From positions 1 through 63,412 of the forward strand of contig CAZXXW010000002.1 of assembly GCA_964644835.1 (NCBI GenBank): a DNA stretch of 63,412 bases, in the 5' to 3' direction. This document shows positions 52,671-62,117 of the stretch, piece by piece. The position numbers were made by a program, and so were the translations under genes. This stretch comes from an uncultured Anaerolineales bacterium (lineage in GTDB: Bacteria > Chloroflexota > Anaerolineae > Anaerolineales > UBA11858). The notes beneath the pieces are model-generated. The model was given only the letters and a program-made list of their open reading frames with translations. It did no database searches and was not told the origin of the DNA. Positions within the stretch are counted from its first letter, which is position 1; the number at the start of each line of letters is the position of its first letter.

Positions 52671-53339
52671 TTAAGATTGGTAATCCAAGACAACGACTTC
52701 CGTCTCCGTGGGGATTGAAGAGGCGGAGGAATCTAATTCCTCCACGGCTTCAACTTGGCCCAGCCCCATTTCTTTCAAAAACTTGCTCAGCGGGTCGAGT
52801 TTCAACTTTGAGTCCGAGGTACGATAATGCATCGGAATGACGATGCCCGGCTCGAGCATGCTGATCACCTCGGATGCTTTCGCCGCGCTCAACCCCTCGC
52901 CGCCACCGACCGGGACGAGGGCGACATCTACCGCTCCCAAAGCCTCGATCTGAGATTGGCTGGGAACGCGGTGAATGTTTCCTAGGTGGGCGATGGTAAT
53001 CCCATCGTAGTCGAAGACGTACAGTGTGTTGTAAGGCTCGTCTTTTTTGCGCTTCGTTTCGCCATTTGTGCGAATCGCGGTGATGAAAACGCCGCCAATT
53101 TCGTATTCTCCGGGGCCCTTGACGATGCGTTTTTTCCGCTTCACGGCGGAGACATGATTATAAGCAGGTACATCTTGGCTGATGGACACAATGTCGGCGC
53201 GCAGGTCCAACGGCTCGTATCCGACGACTTCGTGATTGTAGGGATCTGTAACTACGGTTGCACAACCTCGCGACGTAAGCCGAAAACAAGCGTGTCCGTA
53301 CCACTGAATTTTCATCGGTTTGTTCTTTTCCTTTTTCAA
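52671..53339 (-). CDS. MBL-fold metal-dependent hydrolase (UPF0173-like)
   Basis: MKIQWYGHACFRL..; start may be at the internal MKIQ. Confidence 0.8.
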   Translation of the reverse strand: MKKEKNKPMKIQWYGHACFRLTSRGCATVVTDPYNHEVVGYEPLDLRADIVSISQDVPAYNHVSAVKRKKRIVKGPGEYEIGGVFITAIRTNGETKRKKDEPYNTLYVFDYDGITIAHLGNIHRVPSQSQIEALGAVDVALVPVGGGEGLSAAKASEVISMLEPGIVIPMHYRTSDSKLKLDPLSKFLKEMGLGQVEAVEELDSSASSIPTETEVVVLDYQS

Positions 53340-53439
53340 TATCGAAGAGCATATTAATGATAACGCTCTTGATTATACTGCATGGAGGATAGATACGTCA
53401 AAAACAATTGGCTACATTTTTTACTCCCTTCGTGATAAG

Positions 53440-54948
53440 ATGCCCTCCATGAAAAACATTCTTCTCGCCATCATCGTGATCAGCCTGGTTTTGCCTGTTG
53501 CCGCATGCAGCGGGGCGCCACAAGCCGAGTCAACGGCTACACCAACGGTATCAACCGACACGCCCGTCCCGAGCGTCCCTGCGTCAGTCACCCCGTCACC
53601 GACACCGCAGCCATCCCCCACCGTGACTCCGACGTCCACGGTCCCGCCGCCATCCAAACCGAGCTACGTCATCTCGGCGCAACTCGATTATGCCTATCGC
53701 CATCTCAGCGTGGAAGAGGCGCTGACGATCCCCAACCCCTCCGACGAGCCGATCCCGGAGCTGGTCCTGGTGGTGCAGCCGAACAATTATCCCGGCGTTT
53801 TCACCTTGAGAGAGATTGTCTGGGGAGATGGCAACTCGGTGGAGGCTTACACCCTCCAGGGGATTCGCTTGCGCATCCCCCTGGATGAACCCCTAGCGCC
53901 GAGGGACGAGCGCACGCTTTCTTTACGCTACGAACTTCAGATGCCCCCTCTGGTTCAATCGGAAGAAGTCGGTCCGACGCCTTTCGGTTACACCACCCGC
54001 CAGATCAATCTAGTTGATTGGTATCCCTTCGTGCCGCCCTACCAGCCAGGCGAGGGCTGGGTGGTCCATAATCCCTGGTATTACGGCGAGCATCTCGTCT
54101 TCCCCGTGGCCGACTTCGACATCGCGTTGACCTTGAAAAACGCACCCAATGGCACCATGGTTGCTGCCAGTTCACTGGATCAAGGTGACGGAGAAACACA
54201 CCGCTATCACCTTGAAAACGGGCGCAATTTCGTCTTCTCGGTCAGCCCATCCTACCACCGCTATGAGCAGCAAGTCGGCGACACGACCGTGCTGGGCTAT
54301 GTCTTCGGGCAGTATCAATCGCCGGGGGTGGCCGCGTTCGACGCCACCGTAGAATCTTTCGAACTCTATTCCGAGCTTTTCGGCCCTTATGAGCAACCCA
54401 GCCTGACGATGGTGCAGGGCGATTTCCTCCACGACATGGAGTACCAGGGCCTTCATTTTCTCAGCCGCGGCTTTTTCAACACCTATGACGACAAGATGGG
54501 CAGCTTCTTGATCACCATCGCCGCTCACGAGACCGCCCATCAATGGTGGTACGGCATCGTCGGAAACAACCAGGCCCTGGAGCCCTGGTTGGATGAAGCC
54601 CTGGCGACCTACAGCGAACGCTTATTCTACGAACATCTCTACCCCGACGCGCTGACCTGGTGGACCGAGCAGCGGGTGCACTTCTACCAACCCAGCGGCT
54701 GGGTGGACAGCGCGCTGCATTACACCGACGGCTATCGGCCCTACCGCGATGCCGTCTACCTGCGCGGGGCACTATTCCTCCACGATTTGCGCGCCGTCAT
54801 TGGCGATGAGGCCTTTTTCGCCTTTCTCAAGGATTATACTGCCACCTACCGCTATCAGCTCGTCGACCGGGAAGATTTTTTCAATACCCTGTCCAAGCAT
54901 TCCCAGGCAGATCTGAACGATCTCTTGGCAATCTATTTTCAGGAATGA
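53440..54948 (+). CDS. lipoprotein M1-family zinc metallopeptidase
   Basis: MKNILLAIIVISLVLPVAAC lipobox, HETAHQWWYG (HEXXH) plus WLDEALATY. The start is ATG 53440 or 53449. Confidence 0.85.
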   Translation: MPSMKNILLAIIVISLVLPVAACSGAPQAESTATPTVSTDTPVPSVPASVTPSPTPQPSPTVTPTSTVPPPSKPSYVISAQLDYAYRHLSVEEALTIPNPSDEPIPELVLVVQPNNYPGVFTLREIVWGDGNSVEAYTLQGIRLRIPLDEPLAPRDERTLSLRYELQMPPLVQSEEVGPTPFGYTTRQINLVDWYPFVPPYQPGEGWVVHNPWYYGEHLVFPVADFDIALTLKNAPNGTMVAASSLDQGDGETHRYHLENGRNFVFSVSPSYHRYEQQVGDTTVLGYVFGQYQSPGVAAFDATVESFELYSELFGPYEQPSLTMVQGDFLHDMEYQGLHFLSRGFFNTYDDKMGSFLITIAAHETAHQWWYGIVGNNQALEPWLDEALATYSERLFYEHLYPDALTWWTEQRVHFYQPSGWVDSALHYTDGYRPYRDAVYLRGALFLHDLRAVIGDEAFFAFLKDYTATYRYQLVDREDFFNTLSKHSQADLNDLLAIYFQE

Positions 54949-55376: not shown

Positions 55377-56414
55377 ATGATCTCGTTGTTTATGCCTGCC
55401 CGGCGACGAGCAGCCTTGTGGCCGGTCTTGCTGCTGGCGATTCTCGGGGCAGCTTGCCGCTTGGCAGCAGACCCGGATCAGCTATCTCCCACCGCGACCG
55501 CTCCCGTCCTTGCGACCACGCCCACAGCGGAGCCCCCTTTCCCAACGGTGGAGGCGTCATCAACGCCGACCCTCATCGAGGTTGTCCCATCATCCACGCC
55601 CACACCAACGCCATCGCCGCAACCCACCGCCCTGCGGTTCGCCGTCATCGGCGATTACGGCCTGGCCGGAGAACCGGCCGAAGATGTCGCCAATTTGGTC
55701 AAACGTTGGCAACCAGACTTGATCATCACCACCGGAGACAATAATTATCCCGACGGCGCGGCCGAGACGATCGATCTCAACGTCGGTCAGTACTATCACG
55801 AGTACATCGCTCCCTACCACGGCGATTACGGCGCAGGGGCCGAGATCAACCGCTTCTTCCCCACCCTGGGCAACCACGATTGGAACACCAACCAGGCCCA
55901 ACCCTATCTCGATTATTTCGAACTGCCCGGCAACGAACGTTATTACGATTTCACCTGGGGGCCGGTGCATTTTTTCGCCCTGAGCAGCGACTCCCGCGAA
56001 CCGGATGGCGTGGGTAAATCATCCGCCCAGGCAGATTGGCTCCAAACGGCTTTGGGCGAATCGACAAGTCCGTGGCAGATTGTTTACGGCCATCATCCGC
56101 CCTACTCATCCGGGCCACACGGCTCGATCGATTGGATGCAGTGGCCGTTTCAAGCCTGGGGCGCGGACGTTCTCTTCTGCGGCCATAACCACATCTACGA
56201 ACGATTGATCGTCGACGGTTTTCCAATTTTCATCAACGGGGTAGGCGGCGGGCCGATTTATGCCCTTGACGAAATTCACCAGGCGAGCGAGGTTCGATAT
56301 AATCAAAATCACGGCGCTATGCTGGTCGAAGCAAGCGAAACGAAGATCGAATTCCAATTCATCACCCGCACCGGAGACGTTATCGATTCGTACATACTTA
56401 CAAACACAGAATGA
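55377..56414 (+). CDS. secreted calcineurin-like metallophosphoesterase
   Basis: Signal peptide; VIGDYG, TTGDNNY, LGNHDW, GHHPPYSSGPHG, CGHNHIYER. Confidence 0.85.
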   Translation: MISLFMPARRRAALWPVLLLAILGAACRLAADPDQLSPTATAPVLATTPTAEPPFPTVEASSTPTLIEVVPSSTPTPTPSPQPTALRFAVIGDYGLAGEPAEDVANLVKRWQPDLIITTGDNNYPDGAAETIDLNVGQYYHEYIAPYHGDYGAGAEINRFFPTLGNHDWNTNQAQPYLDYFELPGNERYYDFTWGPVHFFALSSDSREPDGVGKSSAQADWLQTALGESTSPWQIVYGHHPPYSSGPHGSIDWMQWPFQAWGADVLFCGHNHIYERLIVDGFPIFINGVGGGPIYALDEIHQASEVRYNQNHGAMLVEASETKIEFQFITRTGDVIDSYILTNTE

Positions 56415-56421
56415 GGTTTCA

Positions 56422-56856
56422 ATGAAAAAAGAATATATTCAAAAACGACGCGCCGAGAAGCGACGCAAACAACGCCTGACCTGGATCGGCATCGCCGCAG
56501 TGATCTTGCTCATCGTCGGCGGAATTCTTCTGGGGACGAGATCATCAGGCTTACCCGCGGTGATCTCGATTTCACAGGCTTATCAGGCCTATCAGGATGG
56601 CGCCTTGGTTCTGGATGTACGCACGCAAGAAGAATGGGATGTGCTCCGCATCCCCGAGACAACGCTGATTCCTCTGGAGCAACTTCCCGATCGCGTGGAA
56701 GAACTCCCCAAGAACCAAGAGATCGTCGTGATCTGTCGATCGGGAAATCGAAGCCAGGTGGGGCGCGATATTCTATTGGAAGCCGGCTTCAAAAAGGTCA
56801 CCAGCGTGAATGGCGGGGTCAACGCTTGGGCCACGGCAGGGTATCCGGTTGAGTGA
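56422..56856 (+). CDS. membrane-anchored rhodanese-domain sulfurtransferase
   Basis: ATG at 56422 after GAGG; TM anchor; LDVRTQEEW..IVVICRSGNRS active-site loop. Confidence 0.85.
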   Translation: MKKEYIQKRRAEKRRKQRLTWIGIAAVILLIVGGILLGTRSSGLPAVISISQAYQAYQDGALVLDVRTQEEWDVLRIPETTLIPLEQLPDRVEELPKNQEIVVICRSGNRSQVGRDILLEAGFKKVTSVNGGVNAWATAGYPVE

Positions 56857-57146: not shown

Positions 57147-57179
57147 TTTTATTTGGCGCTATCAATAGGAGTATTCCCC

Positions 57180-58058
57180 ATGACCGAAACCGTTGATTCC
57201 TATCGCTTTGTCAGCCGGGCGACCAAACGCGTGCTCAAATCCTGGATCAAGCTGGAAGTGCCGCGCCCGATCCCCTGGAAGCCATTGTCCAAGCCGCTTT
57301 CAGAATGCACCGTAGCGCTAATTAGCTCCGGGGGAATCGCTCTCAAGAATAAGCCCTTCGATCAGGCGTTTGAACGCCAAGACCCCTGGCGCGGCGATCC
57401 CTCCTATCGGGTCATCCCCCGCACGGCCAAAACCGAAGTCATCGGCGTGTACCACCTGCACATCAACCCTGCCTTTGGCGAAGAGGACATCAACTGCCTC
57501 CTGCCCATCGAACATCTCAACACCCTGGAAGCGGAGGGGGAAATCGGGCGTTCCGCGCCGTCGCATTACAGCTACATGGGCTACACCGTCGATCCCGGGC
57601 AACTGCTGGCCGAGAGCGTGCCCGCCATGATCAAGAAAATGCAAGACGAGCACGTCGATGTGGTCGTCCTGGTGCCCGCTTGACCGATCTGCAACTGGTC
57701 CGTTGGACTGGTTCAACGAACGATCGAAGCGGCCGGGATCACGACGATCACGCTGTCCAATATGCCTGAGGTGACCGCCTCGGTCAGCGTGCCTCGAATC
57801 GTCGCAGTGGAACATCCTTTTGGCATGCTGATGGGCCAGCCGGGTGATGACCAAAATCAGATCGCGCTGTTGCGAGCCGTGTTCGCCAGCCTGGAGACAA
57901 TGGAAACGCCGGGAAGCATCGATCACCTTCCGGCCACAGTCCCCGACTCCTTCGATCTTGATCAAGCCCATCCACCGGAGCCGCCGCCCCTGACCAAGCA
58001 TCTCACCCGTCATCCTTTGCAATTCCGCAATTTGCTCAACCGTGACGTCCCCAACTAG
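57180..58058 (+). CDS. GrdB/PrdB-family-like reductase component with in-frame UGA (probable selenocysteine at 57681-57683)
   Basis: AGGAG 8 nt before the ATG at 57180. Track ORFs 57153..57683 and 57762..58058 share a frame, separated by one TGA plus 26 sense codons. The junction reads VVLVPA-U-PICNWSVGLVQRTIEAAGITTITL. Confidence 0.65.
57693..57713 (+). promoter_or_regulatory. candidate bacterial SECIS hairpin
   Basis: AACUGGUCC-GUU-GGACUGGUU (9 bp including 2 G-U) starts 9 nt after the UGA. Confidence 0.4.
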
Positions 58059-58153
58059 GATGACAACTTCCAATTGTCGTATATAATCAGAACAAGCAAA
58101 CTTCTGTAATGGTCAGAAAAAATCTTGACAACAAGGGGTCAATATTTTCCATA

Positions 58154-58201
58154 AGGAATCCAGGAATGGAAGAAGGAAAATTCAAGGTTTCCTGAATTCC
58201 T
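58154..58201. repeat. long hairpin H1 upstream of cotH
   Basis: AGGAATCCAGGAA, 22 nt loop, TTCCTGAATTCCT (12 of 13 bp). Homologous to H2. Confidence 0.6.
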
Positions 58202-58267
58202 AAGAAAACACAGTCATTTGTTGATGATTACAGAAGAGGCTAATTACTTTCGTTGGAGCCGAGAGTC

Positions 58268-59926
58268 ATGAAACAAGCCTGGCAGGATCGAGACTGGCTG
58301 CGTATCGTCGAAATCGCCATCATCGCACTCTTCGTGGTCAGTGCGCTGGTTTGGATTGTTCTCAGCGTATCGTCGGCTCCTGCGGCAACCCCATCCCAAA
58401 ATGCTTCCCATCTCCAAGTTTATGCTTATGCCCTGCCCCACCGCGGCTGGGCGCCCTTGACGGTTTATTTCAGCGCCTACGGCAGTCACGCCACCACGGG
58501 GGAGATCGTGCGCTACCAATGGGACTTGGACGGCAACGGCTCTTTCGAGACGGATGCCACCGCCGAGGGGGGCTACGCCTCCTATGTTTACACCAAGCCG
58601 CGCCAGTACACCATCACGGTCAAAGTCACGGGTGAACAGGGGGAGACCGCCACGGCCAGCGTGCTGGTGGATGTGATGCATCCAGCCTCCAGCAATGTCG
58701 ATTACTGGACGGTCTTCGACCAGAACAAAGTCCGCAAAATCGAAGTGCGGCTGACCCAGGCCAACTGGGACGCGATGATGGCCGAACCGGAGGCCAAACG
58801 GATGGTTCCGGCCAACGCGGTCGTTTTCGGCGAAACGGTCTCCCAAATTGGGATCAGTCCCAAGGGCAACAGCACCTTGTGGTTTCCGGGCGACAAGAAA
58901 CCTTTCAAGCTTGATTTCAACGCCTATATTCCGGAGCAGGAATACAGCAACCTGAAGATGCTGCTCTTGCATAACAACTTTGGCGATGCCTCCATGCTGC
59001 GCGAAAAAATGGCCTATGACATGATGCAGTTCGCCGGAGTCCCCGGCGGATTCACCTCCTACGTCGAGCTGTGGGTCGATATCACCGACGATGAGAATCC
59101 ATCCGATTTTGTCGGCGTCTACACGATGGTCGAGCGGCCAGACCGCAAATACCTGGGTAATCGATTCGGACGCGAGAACGACAACGGTAATCTGTACAAA
59201 GCCGATGCCTGGTTCGAGGAGGGCGCCGCCGATCTGGCCTATTACGGCGAAAACATCGAAAATTATCCCAAGCCGCGCGGCGAGTTAGCCTACGCCTTGA
59301 TGTATAAAGACCCCAGCGAAGCCGATTACAGCGACATCATCAATTTGTGTTACGTCATCGACGGCGTCGAATATGCGACGCCCGAAGACTTCGCCCAAGC
59401 CCTGGAAGAAGTCTTCAACGTGGATACTTTCTTGCGCTATCTGGCTGTGATTTTCCTCAACATCAACTTCGATCAATACCCCGACACGGGCAATAACTAC
59501 TATCTTTACAACAACCCTGGCAGCGGAAATTTCGAATGGATCGCCTGGGACATGGGCAACTCCTGGGGCATGTTCGGTGGTGATGCCACCCACCCCATCT
59601 TCGGCACGGAGCAAAGCCTGGGACCGCTGCAATACCGCCCCCTGTTCACCAATGTTTTCCAGGTCGAATCATACCGACAGACCTATCAAGCTTATTTAGA
59701 CTTGCTCATCCGCAACTATTACAACGAAGAGAATATCGCCGCGTTGGCTCGACGCTGGCACAGCATGGTCAAGCCGCGCCTGTATGAAGGCAACGGCGAC
59801 AAGATGTATTTTGGTCCCTCGTCACAGGCCACCCTTGAAGAATTTGATCAGGGTCTAGAAGCAATCGTTGATCTGACCAAACGACGCGCCGAGTATGTCC
59901 AGGGCGTTTTGCAGCAGAATCCGTGA
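58268..59926 (+). CDS. cotH: CotH-family atypical kinase with N-terminal anchor and PKD-like domain
   Basis: ATG at 58268. TM helix, PKD-like WDLDGNGSFETD..YTITVKVTGEQGETATASV, and CotH core KLDFNAY..LLLHNNFGDASMLREKMAYDMM..YTMVERPD..GNLYKA. Confidence 0.85.
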   Translation: MKQAWQDRDWLRIVEIAIIALFVVSALVWIVLSVSSAPAATPSQNASHLQVYAYALPHRGWAPLTVYFSAYGSHATTGEIVRYQWDLDGNGSFETDATAEGGYASYVYTKPRQYTITVKVTGEQGETATASVLVDVMHPASSNVDYWTVFDQNKVRKIEVRLTQANWDAMMAEPEAKRMVPANAVVFGETVSQIGISPKGNSTLWFPGDKKPFKLDFNAYIPEQEYSNLKMLLLHNNFGDASMLREKMAYDMMQFAGVPGGFTSYVELWVDITDDENPSDFVGVYTMVERPDRKYLGNRFGRENDNGNLYKADAWFEEGAADLAYYGENIENYPKPRGELAYALMYKDPSEADYSDIINLCYVIDGVEYATPEDFAQALEEVFNVDTFLRYLAVIFLNINFDQYPDTGNNYYLYNNPGSGNFEWIAWDMGNSWGMFGGDATHPIFGTEQSLGPLQYRPLFTNVFQVESYRQTYQAYLDLLIRNYYNEENIAALARRWHSMVKPRLYEGNGDKMYFGPSSQATLEEFDQGLEAIVDLTKRRAEYVQGVLQQNP

Positions 59927-59995
59927 CACCAAGAGACATCTACCGCCGAGAAAAACCATTTCTAGGAATTTTGCGGTTTTCAAACTTCACCTTTT

Positions 59996-60050
59996 TGATC
60001 AGGAAGGCAGGAATACAAGAAAAAATCAAGGATTCCTGGCTTCCTGATCA
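59996..60050. repeat. long hairpin H2 between cotH and the DUF4956 gene
   Basis: TGATCAGGAAGGCAGGAAT, 17 nt loop, ATTCCTGGCTTCCTGATCA (18 of 19 bp). Confidence 0.6.
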
Positions 60051-60066
60051 GTACATGGAGACACCG

Positions 60067-61419
60067 ATGAAAAAACAATCCATCTTACAAATCATTGCGC
60101 TCATCCTCGTTATCGCCGTGCTTTTCCTCCCGGCGGTTGGCGTTCTCGCCCAGGAGGGATTCTTCACCGAAACCTTCGATGAAGAATCCCTGCCCGGCTG
60201 GGAGCGTTCCGAAAAGGCCGTCGTCCAGGATGGCGTTTTGAAGATCAGCCCCGGAAACTTCGCCGTCAAATTCGGCGACTACGGCGACGCCACCATCAGC
60301 GTCAAGGTCAAGCGCGGCGGGCCGGGCATTGTATTTGTCCGCTACGCCATGAGCGATGAAGCCAGTTACGCCGTCATCATGGTCGAAGATGCAATCATCC
60401 TGGAAAAAACGCTTGGCGAGCAGCCCCAAGAACTGGGCAGCTATGATGGCATCAACTCCACCCAAGAGTGGATGGAACTAAAAATAACCCACAGCGGCGG
60501 CAGCCATGAGATCTTTCTCGACGGCGAGTCGCTCATCACCGCTACCGATGAAGAACCTTTACAGGGAGGTGGGATCGGTTTCTGGGTAGATGGCGAGTCC
60601 GCGGCCGAATTCGACGATCTGAGCGTCTCCCCCGTTGTGACCGAGGAAGAACCTTCCGGAGGGGAAGAGGCTGCCGCCTCCGTGGAGCAGCCTACCGCGC
60701 CCGCAACCCCCGCAGCGGATGCGGTCTCCACGCCGCTCAGCGTCAGCGATCTGATCGACGAGTTAGCCAGCAGCCAGGCCAACCCCACCGAATTGACTAC
60801 TTTCATCGTCAATCTGCTGCTCTCGGTGATCCTGTCCTACATTTTGAGCCGAGTGTACGTCCATTGGGGCTCATCGCTCTCCAACCGGCGACGCTTTGCA
60901 GCCAACTTCATCCTTATCACCGTGACGACCACGTTCATCATCCTGGTGGTGCGTTCCTCCGTAGCGCTGTCCCTCGGTTTGGTTGGTGCTCTCTCGATCG
61001 TCCGTTTTCGCGCCGCCATCAAAGAGCCGGAAGAACTGGCCTATCTCTTCTTTGCCATCGCCATTGGGATCGGATTGGGCGATAACCAACGCCTGATCAC
61101 GGTCATCGCCCTGGCCGTGGCCATCCTAATCCTGGGTGTGATGCGCCTGTTCCGCGGCCGCCAGGCGGATTTCAACTTGCACGTCACCGTCGCCAGCCAC
61201 AACCCTGCCAAGGTCGAGCTGGAAGAGATCCTTGCCGCCCTGAAACCGCACTGCGCTCAGGTCAAACTCGTTCGTTTTGATGACTCTGGCGACGCGCTGG
61301 AAAGCTCGTTCCTGGTCGAGTTCAGAAATATAGCCAAGCTCAAAGAAGCCAAAGCCGCCCTGCGCGGCTTGTCAAACTCGCTGGAAATTACCTTTTTAGA
61401 CAACAAGGGCATCTGGTAA
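60067..61419 (+). CDS. DUF4956-type membrane protein with N-terminal jelly-roll (DUF1080-like) ectodomain
   Basis: GGAG 6 nt before the ATG at 60067. Signal/anchor, ectodomain FTETFDEESLPGWERSEKAVVQDGVLKI..FDDLSV, and C-terminal LLLSVILSYILSRVY..GALSIVRFRAAIKEPEELAYLFFAIAIGIGLG. Confidence 0.8.
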   Translation: MKKQSILQIIALILVIAVLFLPAVGVLAQEGFFTETFDEESLPGWERSEKAVVQDGVLKISPGNFAVKFGDYGDATISVKVKRGGPGIVFVRYAMSDEASYAVIMVEDAIILEKTLGEQPQELGSYDGINSTQEWMELKITHSGGSHEIFLDGESLITATDEEPLQGGGIGFWVDGESAAEFDDLSVSPVVTEEEPSGGEEAAASVEQPTAPATPAADAVSTPLSVSDLIDELASSQANPTELTTFIVNLLLSVILSYILSRVYVHWGSSLSNRRRFAANFILITVTTTFIILVVRSSVALSLGLVGALSIVRFRAAIKEPEELAYLFFAIAIGIGLGDNQRLITVIALAVAILILGVMRLFRGRQADFNLHVTVASHNPAKVELEEILAALKPHCAQVKLVRFDDSGDALESSFLVEFRNIAKLKEAKAALRGLSNSLEITFLDNKGIW

Positions 61420-61424
61420 ATTCG

Positions 61425-62117
61425 ATGAATGCTGATTTGCCCAGCCGTGAATACCGCTACGAGCGCAAGTTTTTCGTCGATCAACTGGATGCTCCTCAGG
61501 TAATTGCCCTGTTGAAGCACCATCCGGCCATGTTCGCCGAGATTTATCCGCCCCGTTACATCAACAACATCTATATGGACACACCCTGGATGGAAAACTA
61601 CTTCGACAACGTCGCCGGGCTGACCGAACGGAGAAAGGCGCGCCTGCGCTGGTATCATGATTTGTTTCGGCAGGTTGATGCTCCCCAGTTGGAGTTCAAG
61701 ATCAAGCGCGGGTTAGTCGGAACCAAGCTGCAATACCCGTTCCCGGCTTTTTCCTTTGGAGCAGGTTTCAATCAAGAAAGATTCGCCCAGATCATTCGGG
61801 AGGCAGACCTCCCCCAGGATGTAGTCAATCATCTCTTATCTTTGGAGCCGGTTTTGGTCAATCGGTACAAACGCTGGTACTTCGCCACACCCGACCGCGC
61901 TTTTCGCGTCACGATCGATATGGACCTGACCTTTTATCATCTCAACAAGTTCAGCAATCGTTTTCTGTATAAACAGATTAATCACCACAGCATCGTCGTC
62001 GAGTTGAAGTATCAAGTTGAGCATGATCCCCAAGCCAGCCGCATCACCGCCGGATTTCCTTTCCGGATGACGCGCAGCTCCAAGTATGTGCAAGGTATTG
62101 AGCGTGTCTATCTTTAA
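61425..62117 (+). CDS. VTC-domain (polyphosphate-polymerase-like, CYTH/TTM fold) protein
   Basis: YRYERKFFV..YINNIYMDT..RKARLRWY..EFKIKRG..FRVTIDMDL..VVELKY. Lies 5 nt after the DUF4956 gene. Confidence 0.8.
   Translation: MNADLPSREYRYERKFFVDQLDAPQVIALLKHHPAMFAEIYPPRYINNIYMDTPWMENYFDNVAGLTERRKARLRWYHDLFRQVDAPQLEFKIKRGLVGTKLQYPFPAFSFGAGFNQERFAQIIREADLPQDVVNHLLSLEPVLVNRYKRWYFATPDRAFRVTIDMDLTFYHLNKFSNRFLYKQINHHSIVVELKYQVEHDPQASRITAGFPFRMTRSSKYVQGIERVYL

Follow-up and report, generated by a model that had tools for sequence, protein, structure and literature searches.

A CotH-DUF4956-VTC gene module of bacteria and archaea with a possible role in phosphate chemistry at the cell surface

Introduction

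Synthesis of polyphosphate (polyP) in prokaryotes is credited to PPK1 and PPK2, and VTC is regarded as a eukaryotic invention (PMC10657179, PMC13484657). In this study, we analyzed a cluster of three genes, coding for a CotH-family protein, a DUF4956 membrane protein and a VTC-domain (triphosphate tunnel) protein, which lies at positions 58268-62117 of a 63-kb stretch of DNA from an uncultured Anaerolineales bacterium (contig CAZXXW010000002.1 of assembly GCA_964644835.1, positions 1 to 63,412; this whole stretch is hereafter called the window). The three families were found to travel together in many bacterial phyla and in archaea, so that a large family of stand-alone VTC proteins with an intact polymerase site is tied to a membrane protein and to an outward-facing, kinase-like enzyme.

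Three linked genes in an Anaerolineales genome

The cluster consists of three open reading frames (ORFs), all on the forward strand (Table 1). The stop codon of the DUF4956 gene (TAA, 61417-61419) is separated from the ATG of the VTC gene (61425) by 5 nt. Protein domains were assigned with Pfam, and all reported domain matches exceed the gathering thresholds. The first protein matches CotH (6.7e-57) and PKD (3.8e-8), the second DUF4956 (1.2e-15; 58 bits versus a cut-off of 30.6) and 3keto-disac_hyd/DUF1080 (4.9e-8), and the third VTC (E 5.5e-25; 88.7 bits versus a cut-off of 23) over profile positions 2-234 of 235, with no other domain. NCBIfam offered no named family for any of them. A preliminary description of this DNA had reported three linked same-strand genes with these domain identities, their membrane topology and the 5-nt gap between the DUF4956 and VTC genes; ORFs, Pfam and hydrophobicity agree with it in every particular, and the CotH-DUF4956-VTC module of the window is real.

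The closest homologues of all three proteins occur in Anaerolineales or Anaerolineae metagenome-assembled genomes (MAGs). Sequencing runs that contain the cluster sequence were all DNA metagenomes, sampled from marine sediment and soda or hypersaline lakes, and support for expression or co-transcription was not found.

Linkage of the three families across bacteria and archaea

An alignment of 42 diverse stand-alone VTC proteins (36-63% identity; alignment A3) was used as the query in a scan in which each GTDB species was represented by one genome. The matches numbered at least 575 loci, of which 80 were retained with 10-kb flanks; together with one from a contig look-up, they make up 81 VTC loci (L001-L081), whose neighbors were counted with family hidden Markov models (HMMs) built iteratively from the proteins of the window. 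A DUF4956 gene accompanies the VTC gene at 74 of these 81 loci, in every case on the same strand and upstream of it. These loci belong to Chloroflexota, Bacteroidota, KSB1, Planctomycetota, Gemmatimonadota, Acidobacteriota, Omnitrophota, Methanosarcina, Methanogenium and Woesearchaeota. CotH-family genes were detected in 67 loci and all three families in 64, and 77 of 81 CotH genes share the strand of VTC. Two kinds of CotH protein could be distinguished by Pfam and HMM: CotH1, the kind found in the window (~560 aa), in 31 loci, and CotH2 in 44. Most of the 17 incomplete loci are cut short, with the contig ending within 2.6 kb upstream in 12 of them; a further locus has its DUF4956-CotH pair elsewhere on the same contig, 94 kb away. 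Chance adjacency of the three families is rejected on these counts, and the frequent co-occurrence in bacteria that the preliminary description had stated is borne out.

Where DUF4956 stands immediately before VTC, the estimated gap is 20 nt or less in 31 of the 54 adjacent pairs. Gene order differs among lineages. Chloroflexota have CotH1-DUF4956-VTC, and Bacteroidota have either DUF4956-VTC-CotH1 or CotH2-DUF4956-VTC; the arrangement DUF4956-CotH2-VTC is found in KSB1, Planctomycetota, Omnitrophota and Acidobacteriota and, among archaea, in Methanosarcina, Methanogenium and Woesearchaeota. Gene order has thus been reshuffled and membership nevertheless kept, which is the signature of a functional module. 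The same is seen at close range, since a relative with 61% identity (L001) keeps the triad within completely different flanks. The VTC family itself is large, with 3348 clusters at 50% identity at E<=1e-3 and 726 at E<=1e-30.

Apart from these loci, DUF4956-CotH2 pairs with no adjoining VTC gene were observed inside exopolysaccharide (EPS) clusters (L083:10001-13382 and L084:10001-13340). In a KSB1/Deferribacteres MAG, the VTC gene (L028:9974-10672) and the DUF4956-CotH2 pair (L084) are about 94 kb apart on the same contig. The bond between DUF4956 and CotH may be the tighter one.

The triad has been met before beside pel operons. In Streptococci and Clostridia, genes for cotH, a 'poly-phosphate polymerase', DUF4956 and DUF4832 form an accessory group contiguous with pel operons, and in Bifidobacteria a diguanylate cyclase/phosphodiesterase gene takes the place of DUF4832 (10.1101/768473). 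In Streptococcus intermedius, SIR_1594 is a secreted CotH with FN3, SIR_1593 has a Vtc4-like tunnel with the catalytic residues, and SIR_1592 is an MgtC-like protein with four transmembrane (TM) helices and ACT (10.1101/2024.04.20.589940; PMC12345266). When SIR_1592 or SIR_1594 is deleted, Pel levels change, and aggregation in artificial sputum medium drops by over 50% (PMC12345266). In Clostridium perfringens NELoc-2, genes for VTC, a membrane protein annotated as 'tubulin/FtsZ' and CotH lie beside a chitin-synthase-like gene (PMC2879425). The preliminary description had stated that the triad has no assigned function, and this holds: we found no paper in the literature that says what the triad does or suggests vectorial polyP synthesis by it. 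The triad had not gone unnoticed, however, as it has been described as a pel accessory set with deletion phenotypes for CotH and DUF4956 (10.1101/768473; PMC12345266).

Both the preprint and the published version of the S. intermedius study state that synteny of the triad was not found outside pel loci (10.1101/2024.04.20.589940; PMC12345266). This does not hold, because the window and more than 60 other loci carry the triad. Pel-type genes are missing from the 7 kb that precede the cluster and from the 1.3 kb between it and the window end, and none lies within 10 kb on either side in L001. The module is therefore far more widespread than published, includes archaea and is independent of pel. 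Compared with SIR_1594/1593/1592, the window has the same three families in synteny, with a secreted CotH, a cytoplasmic VTC protein and a TM DUF4956 protein ending in an ACT-like domain. It differs in lacking a pel operon, in being flanked by GrdB-like, LysE and DUF2177 genes, and in its order CotH-DUF4956-VTC; moreover, its CotH has PKD rather than FN3, and its DUF4956 adds a signal peptide and a jelly roll resembling a carbohydrate-binding module (CBM). The window instance is a stand-alone Chloroflexota variant of a known module, with PKD and CBM-like ectodomain fusions.

Surface-polysaccharide neighborhoods and a candidate fourth component

In Chloroflexota, the triad stands alone. Recurrent neighbors elsewhere include GT4 glycosyltransferases (25 loci), NAD-dependent sugar epimerases/dehydratases (12), Wzy_C polymerase/ligase-like proteins (10) and DegT aminotransferases (8), and further neighbors outside Chloroflexota are PMT_2 (GT-C) proteins, flippases and polysaccharide deacetylases. 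Outside Chloroflexota, the vocabulary of the neighborhood is that of surface-polysaccharide synthesis and charge modification. In two polysaccharide clusters (L086:1299-4684 and L087:9913-13483), genes for ATP sulfurylase, adenylylsulfate (APS) kinase, a sulfotransferase and a sulfate symporter adjoin the triad. Such complete sulfation sets suggest that the module is part of the apparatus controlling how anionic exopolymers are.

A protein of ~360 aa, with a weak or absent Pfam match to Metallophos (calcineurin-like phosphoesterase), is encoded within the module or beside it in 20 of the 81 loci, often between CotH2 and VTC. Examples are L060:8880-9974, L061:8784-9974, L063:8949-10034 and L016:9073-9966, and the protein also occurs at two look-up loci (L082:13384-14460 and L086:11282-12352). 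It is possibly a fourth component of the module, a candidate polyphosphatase; the yeast vacuolar endopolyphosphatase Ppn2 belongs to the calcineurin-like phosphoesterase superfamily. The window has a secreted metallophosphoesterase of its own (55377-56414), which was rejected as the fourth member, since it bears no similarity to the phosphoesterase-like family recurring in other loci.

An intact tunnel active site in the VTC protein

Profile searches matched the VTC protein to the Vtc2, Vtc4 and Vtc3 structures. According to cryo-electron microscopy and mutants of the yeast VTC complex, polyP synthesis requires K200, R264, R266, K281, Y359, R361, S457 and K458 (triphosphate) and E426 (Mn2+), and K458 is the sole one of these residues changed in the inactive Vtc2 and Vtc3, which have Ile/Leu there (10.1101/2023.01.27.525886). 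By our profile alignments to Vtc4 chains, their equivalents in the window are K15, R73, R75, K92, Y148, R150, S219, K220 and E193, respectively. All nine, including K220, are invariant in the 42 homologues of alignment A3; the segment with the equivalents of E426, S457 and K458 is low-scoring, and its motifs agree (LExK, SKY/FxxG). The tunnel recognized in the preliminary description is thus intact, no catalytic residue of Vtc4 having been lost. Polymerase chemistry is the best reading of this protein from its residues, although not a certain one. A hydrophobic segment was found in just 1 of the 81 VTC proteins, and none in that of the window.

Topology and conservation of the DUF4956 fusion protein

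The DUF4956 protein of the window begins with a signal peptide and a jelly roll, followed by the membrane core and an ACT-like domain (Table 1). Foldseek searches with the jelly roll gave CBM66 (fructan-binding) as the best match (E 1.3e-9), with beta-glucanase- and galectin-like folds also detected, and the model thus indicates a carbohydrate-recognition type of fold for the ectodomain. The fusion of jelly roll and DUF4956 is conserved throughout the Anaerolineae homologues, with an acidic, Pro-rich linker between the two domains. Positive charges sit in the loops after TM1, TM3 and TM5. Together with the upstream signal peptide and ectodomain, they suggest an N-out/C-in orientation, which would place the ACT-like domain on the side of the VTC protein.

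The segment SSxALSLGLVGALSIVRFRAAIKEPEEL (residues 72-99 of the domain stretch 60742-61419), which comprises TM3, a cytoplasmic loop and TM4, is near-invariant from Chloroflexota to Bacteroidota to methanogenic archaea (alignments A4-A6). Such extreme conservation suggests that the segment serves in catalysis, gating or docking. An AlphaFold2 (AF2) model of the full fusion, made with 43 close relatives, has a pLDDT of ~50 in the TM region, and a model of the domain made with 130 sequences reaches a mean pLDDT of 80.

The preliminary description had proposed a structural comparison of the DUF4956 membrane part with the TM helices of yeast Vtc1 and Vtc4, and no likeness emerged from it. No Pfam match to DUF202, the Vtc1-type TM domain, was obtained for the DUF4956 proteins even at E<=10, and a Foldseek search of the five-TM domain model with pLDDT 80 against the PDB gave no match at E<1e-3 and none to chains of the VTC complex. 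For the ACT-like domain, the Foldseek matches were all weak and confined to ACT and PII-like folds.

The relation to the yeast VTC complex (7YTJ, 8I6V) is therefore a mixed one. Both systems have a homologous catalytic tunnel with the nine residues kept, lying on the cytoplasmic side, an apparently obligate pairing with a membrane protein and, possibly, a luminal or external metallophosphoesterase partner. The window, on the other hand, has no SPX domain, and its tunnel is a soluble protein of 230 aa on its own, with no membrane domain attached; the partner in the membrane, with five TM helices and an ACT-like domain, is unrelated to the 3-TM DUF202 of Vtc1-4, and the extracytoplasmic CotH has no counterpart in VTC. 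The 'split, VTC-like machine' of the preliminary description would accordingly be a functional analogy and not a homology, and as such it is a reasonable working hypothesis.

CotH proteins predicted to face outward

The CotH protein of the window could be aligned with Bacillus cereus CotH (5JD9) across the whole domain (phmmer 5e-11). Its Asp402 and Asp428 correspond to D224 and D247 of B. cereus and to D228 and D251 of Bacillus subtilis, and both are invariant in 31 of 31 CotH1 homologues. Mutation of D228 or D251 inactivates the B. subtilis CotH kinase (PMC7821199). The window protein thus shares the fold family and both catalytic Asp residues with Bacillus CotH (5JD9/5JDA). Bacillus CotH, however, has the coat proteins CotB and CotG as its substrates and works in the cytoplasm of the mother cell, whereas the window protein is signal-anchored and predicted to face outward, is fused to PKD and belongs to a polyP/membrane module. 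The Anaerolineae lineage is not known to sporulate. This non-spore, extracytoplasmic setting argues for a substrate other than spore-coat proteins.

An N-terminal hydrophobic anchor or signal is present in 70 of 73 CotH proteins (30/31 CotH1 and 40/42 CotH2; both CotH2 exceptions are cut by contig ends). The CotH2 proteins are divergent and longer (870-1020 aa), with an N-terminal anchor and a C-terminal pectate-lyase-like right-handed beta-helix, and their Pfam CotH match is weak (1e-5 to 1e-10) or at times missing. Alongside DUF4956 and VTC, they occur in many bacterial phyla and in archaea (for example L034:7248-9971, L037:7376-9970, L060:6189-8876, L084:10707-13340 and ~40 further loci). 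A D...N...D/E pattern is seen in them, in an alignment that is insecure. The envelope-directed role suggested earlier for CotH agrees with its extracytoplasmic placement and with the surface-polysaccharide neighbors outside Chloroflexota. The generic envelope target proposed along with it is better replaced by a surface glycan, which the neighborhoods make the likelier substrate.

A possible transmembrane route for phosphate chemistry

We tentatively propose that the three genes constitute one trans-membrane module through which phosphate chemistry of the cytoplasm reaches the cell surface. What we infer of each biochemical step starts from the linkage, intact active sites, topology and glycan context reported above. 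In the first step, the soluble VTC protein would polymerize the gamma-phosphate of ATP to polyP in its basic beta-tunnel, like yeast Vtc4, as suggested by its conserved catalytic residues; that it makes polyP appears likely. In the most economical version, it would at least handle a triphosphate at the inner face of the membrane. In the second step, for which strict gene coupling and topology are the grounds, the VTC protein would dock on the cytoplasmic face of DUF4956, with the ACT-like domain and the invariant R-F-R-x-x-I-K-E-P-E-E loop as the candidate docking site, and an oligomeric DUF4956 would pass or present the product across the membrane. We hold with good confidence that DUF4956 is an obligate membrane partner of VTC; that it also translocates the VTC product is a tentative suggestion. 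In the third step, the outward-facing CotH and the ectodomains of carbohydrate-binding type (PKD and the CBM-like jelly roll) would have a surface glycan or a matrix polymer as their target, in line with the topology, the fused domains and the neighborhoods. CotH might phosphorylate this polymer with exported polyP as the energy-rich donor in an ATP-free compartment, or fix polyP to it. Action of CotH on a glycan seems nearly an even prospect, and its use of exported polyP is doubtful. Export of polyP and its use by CotH as a donor would explain both the co-inheritance of three unlike proteins and the frequent phosphoesterase fourth member. In its fullest form, the proposal is a third, VTC-type, vectorial polyP route in bacteria and archaea, in which VTC feeds polyP through DUF4956 and CotH uses it as an ATP-independent donor to (poly)phosphorylate surface polysaccharides; taken as a whole, this is unlikely.

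Several observations weigh against the proposal. We know of no CotH-family protein that uses polyP or phosphorylates sugars. Homology of DUF4956 to the membrane domain of Vtc1/Vtc4 had to be rejected on the DUF202 and Foldseek results given above. The TM region was modeled as a monomer, poorly so in the first model (pLDDT ~50), and a monomer cannot show a pore. In S. intermedius, deletion of SIR_1593, the VTC gene, had no clear effect, unlike that of both partners (PMC12345266), and in two genomes (L083, L084) DUF4956-CotH pairs occur without an adjacent VTC gene; the missing phenotype and the separation of the pair from VTC together give room to other explanations.

The first of these is that polyP made by VTC is cytoplasmic, that DUF4956 is an MgtC-like regulator or anchor, and that CotH is a separate, co-regulated, ATP-dependent surface protein kinase; the ACT-like domain would sense a metabolite and tune VTC activity or phosphate homeostasis. 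We regard this as rather unlikely. A cytoplasmic location is favored by the authors of the S. intermedius preprint, since other VTC subunits are missing (10.1101/2024.04.20.589940), and ACT-like folds are usually ligand sensors. The TM part of DUF4956 is labeled MgtC/YhiD-like in CDD, JGI and the literature. DUF4956 does share with MgtC/SapB/YhiD an N-terminal helical membrane domain and a C-terminal cytoplasmic ACT-like domain, and MgtC, which the literature connects to phosphate and ATP homeostasis, appears as a sub-threshold second Pfam match in 5 of 6 DUF4956 proteins (E 0.05-0.8). However, profile comparison with Escherichia coli YhiD by hhalign gave a probability of 1.9%, so that demonstrable membership of the MgtC family was not confirmed. 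The signature motif SLGLVGALSIVRFRAAIKEPEEL is specific to DUF4956. In addition, a cytoplasmic product leaves unexplained why an extracytoplasmic CotH is retained across phyla and archaea and where an external kinase would obtain its ATP, and the extreme conservation of TM3-loop-TM4 suggests more than an anchor.

A second explanation takes the VTC protein as a hydrolase or transferase of the triphosphate tunnel metalloenzyme (TTM) type, acting on a triphosphate substrate (tri- or polyphosphate, nucleoside triphosphate, lipid- or sugar-linked pyrophosphate), and not as a polymerase. Its task would be to prepare, or to recycle, a phosphate donor bound to the membrane, for example one linked to polyprenyl (pyro)phosphate; DUF4956 would flip this donor, and CotH would transfer from it to a glycan. 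In TTM hydrolases, unlike Vtc4, four Glu residues form an acidic patch for binding a second metal (PMC4641920). At one mapped position of this patch, Vtc4 has Thr198 and the VTC protein an invariant Glu13, the second Glu of the EXEXK motif and a ligand position for the second metal in TTM hydrolases (PMC4641920). This residue counts against the polymerase step of our proposal, as it keeps hydrolase or another transferase chemistry in play. AtTTM3 is a tripolyphosphatase and not a polymerase, despite a Vtc4-like tunnel center (PMC4641920), and the frequent GT-C/PMT_2 and Wzy-type neighbors use polyprenyl-linked donors. Against this, the remaining mapped acidic-patch positions (R11, K195) are basic as in Vtc4, and the Pfam match is to VTC, not to CYTH. 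The equivalent of the polymerase-specific Lys458 is invariant, and the corresponding Lys of AtTTM3 is dispensable for hydrolysis (PMC4641920), so that strict conservation of K220 points to polymerase chemistry. A hydrolase or transferase is accordingly judged quite unlikely.

Least probable is that exported polyP itself is the product, as an anionic part of the matrix or capsule that cross-links cationic polysaccharides or chelates metals, with CotH and the ectodomains only organizing or anchoring it and CotH perhaps catalytically irrelevant. Genes of the pel and polysaccharide deacetylase kinds make cationic polymers. The association of the module with pel (10.1101/768473) and with deacetylase genes, its co-location with sulfation genes, another route to anionic exopolymer charge, and a report of PPK-independent extracellular polyP in the B. 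cereus group, though without a VTC homologue (PMC13484657), speak for this improbable reading, and the invariant catalytic Asp residues of CotH1, which argue for catalysis, and the unchanged aggregation of the S. intermedius VTC deletion mutant (PMC12345266) speak against it.

Export of polyP or phosphorylation of surface glycans by the module, if it occurs as we propose, would bear on the origin of extracellular polyP, on the charge of biofilm exopolymers (in the Pel and sulfated EPS contexts), on the power source of phosphorylation outside the membrane and on the evolutionary origin of the catalytic subunit of eukaryotic VTC. A vectorial VTC-type route, if true, would be a general answer to phosphorylation in an ATP-free compartment and a prokaryotic analogue of the eukaryotic VTC complex, possibly the evolutionary source of its catalytic domain. 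The module is directly testable, as it comprises three small proteins and cultured carriers exist, among them Pelolinea submarina, Methanosarcina, Methanogenium marinum, Agaribacillus aureus and S. intermedius.

Other features of the region

Coordinates of the genes, protein domains and candidate signals are given in Table 1.

Table 1. Genes, domains and candidate signals of the cluster in the window
Feature	Position	Strand	Description
CotH gene	58268-59926	+	552 aa; ATG with GGAG 10 nt upstream; alternative TTG start at 58253
CotH protein layout	58268-59926	+	K/R-rich N-terminus; signal anchor aa ~10-36; PKD aa ~60-135; CotH aa 196-544; predicted extracytoplasmic
DUF4956 gene	60067-61419	+	450 aa; ATG with GGAG 7 nt upstream; same product on record as P0121
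Signal peptide (DUF4956 protein)	60067-60150	+	MKKQSILQIIALILVIAVLFLPAVGVLA, ending ...GVLA/QE; helix 2-24 in AF2 model
Jelly roll (DUF4956 protein)	60154-60636	+	Predicted extracytoplasmic, concanavalin-like; DUF1080/3-keto-disaccharide hydrolase family; AF2 pLDDT >90
DUF4956 membrane core	60784-61152	+	Five predicted TM helices, N-out/C-in; Pfam and AF2 domain model
ACT-like domain (DUF4956 protein)	61171-61401	+	Predicted cytoplasmic, ferredoxin/ACT-like beta-alpha-beta-beta-alpha-beta; AF2 pLDDT ~85-90
VTC gene	61425-62117	+	230 aa; soluble VTC-domain (triphosphate tunnel) protein
Sigma-70-like promoter candidate	58060-58087	+	ATGACA-16-TATAAT, 11/12; ~180 nt upstream of CotH start
Hairpin copy 1	58154-58201	+	CotH leader or upstream region; -16.4 kcal/mol, z -2.7
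Hairpin copy 2	59995-60051	+	16 nt upstream of DUF4956 start codon; -30.6 kcal/mol, z -7.2
Terminator-like stem-loop	62149-62167	+	32 nt past VTC stop; weak: 6-bp stem, T-rich tail; not above chance

The promoter candidate and the terminator-like hairpin fit a three-gene operon and are statistically not compelling; sigma-70-like sites are no more numerous across the region than expected by chance, and the position of this one is only suggestive. Both ~50-nt hairpin copies contain the 16-mer AAWTCAAGGWTTCCTG, which occurs twice in the whole window versus 0.12 times expected, and at least one stem position differs between them by a compensatory change (T:A versus G:C). An Rfam search of the cluster found no family, apart from one spurious match to a microRNA model at hairpin copy 2 (E 0.62). 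As a conserved feature of the family, the hairpin pair was rejected: the motif is absent from 83 loci, and most relatives lack the CotH-DUF4956 spacer. In the window operon, the two copies may serve as a common cis-regulatory operator or RNA element.

The flanks of the triad in the window hold a GrdB-like selenoprotein gene, LysE and DUF2177. Further upstream on the same strand lie genes for an M1-family peptidase with a Pro/Thr/Ser-rich linker (53320-54948), for the above-mentioned metallophosphoesterase, which has a signal peptide and a Pro/Thr-rich linker, and for a membrane-anchored rhodanese (56422-56856). No connection between these three predicted exported or membrane proteins and the triad was found.

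The GrdB-like gene (57153-58058, forward strand) is directly upstream of the cluster and matches the C-terminal part of GRDB, selenoprotein B of glycine/sarcosine/betaine reductase (1.1e-9). An in-frame TGA codon (57681-57683) is followed by Pro-Ile-Cys, which gives a UxxC motif, and a short stem-loop, ACUGGUCC-GUU-GGACUGGU, begins 14 nt past the TGA. Judging from these features, the gene probably encodes a selenocysteine-containing protein that has been cut in two by ORF callers.

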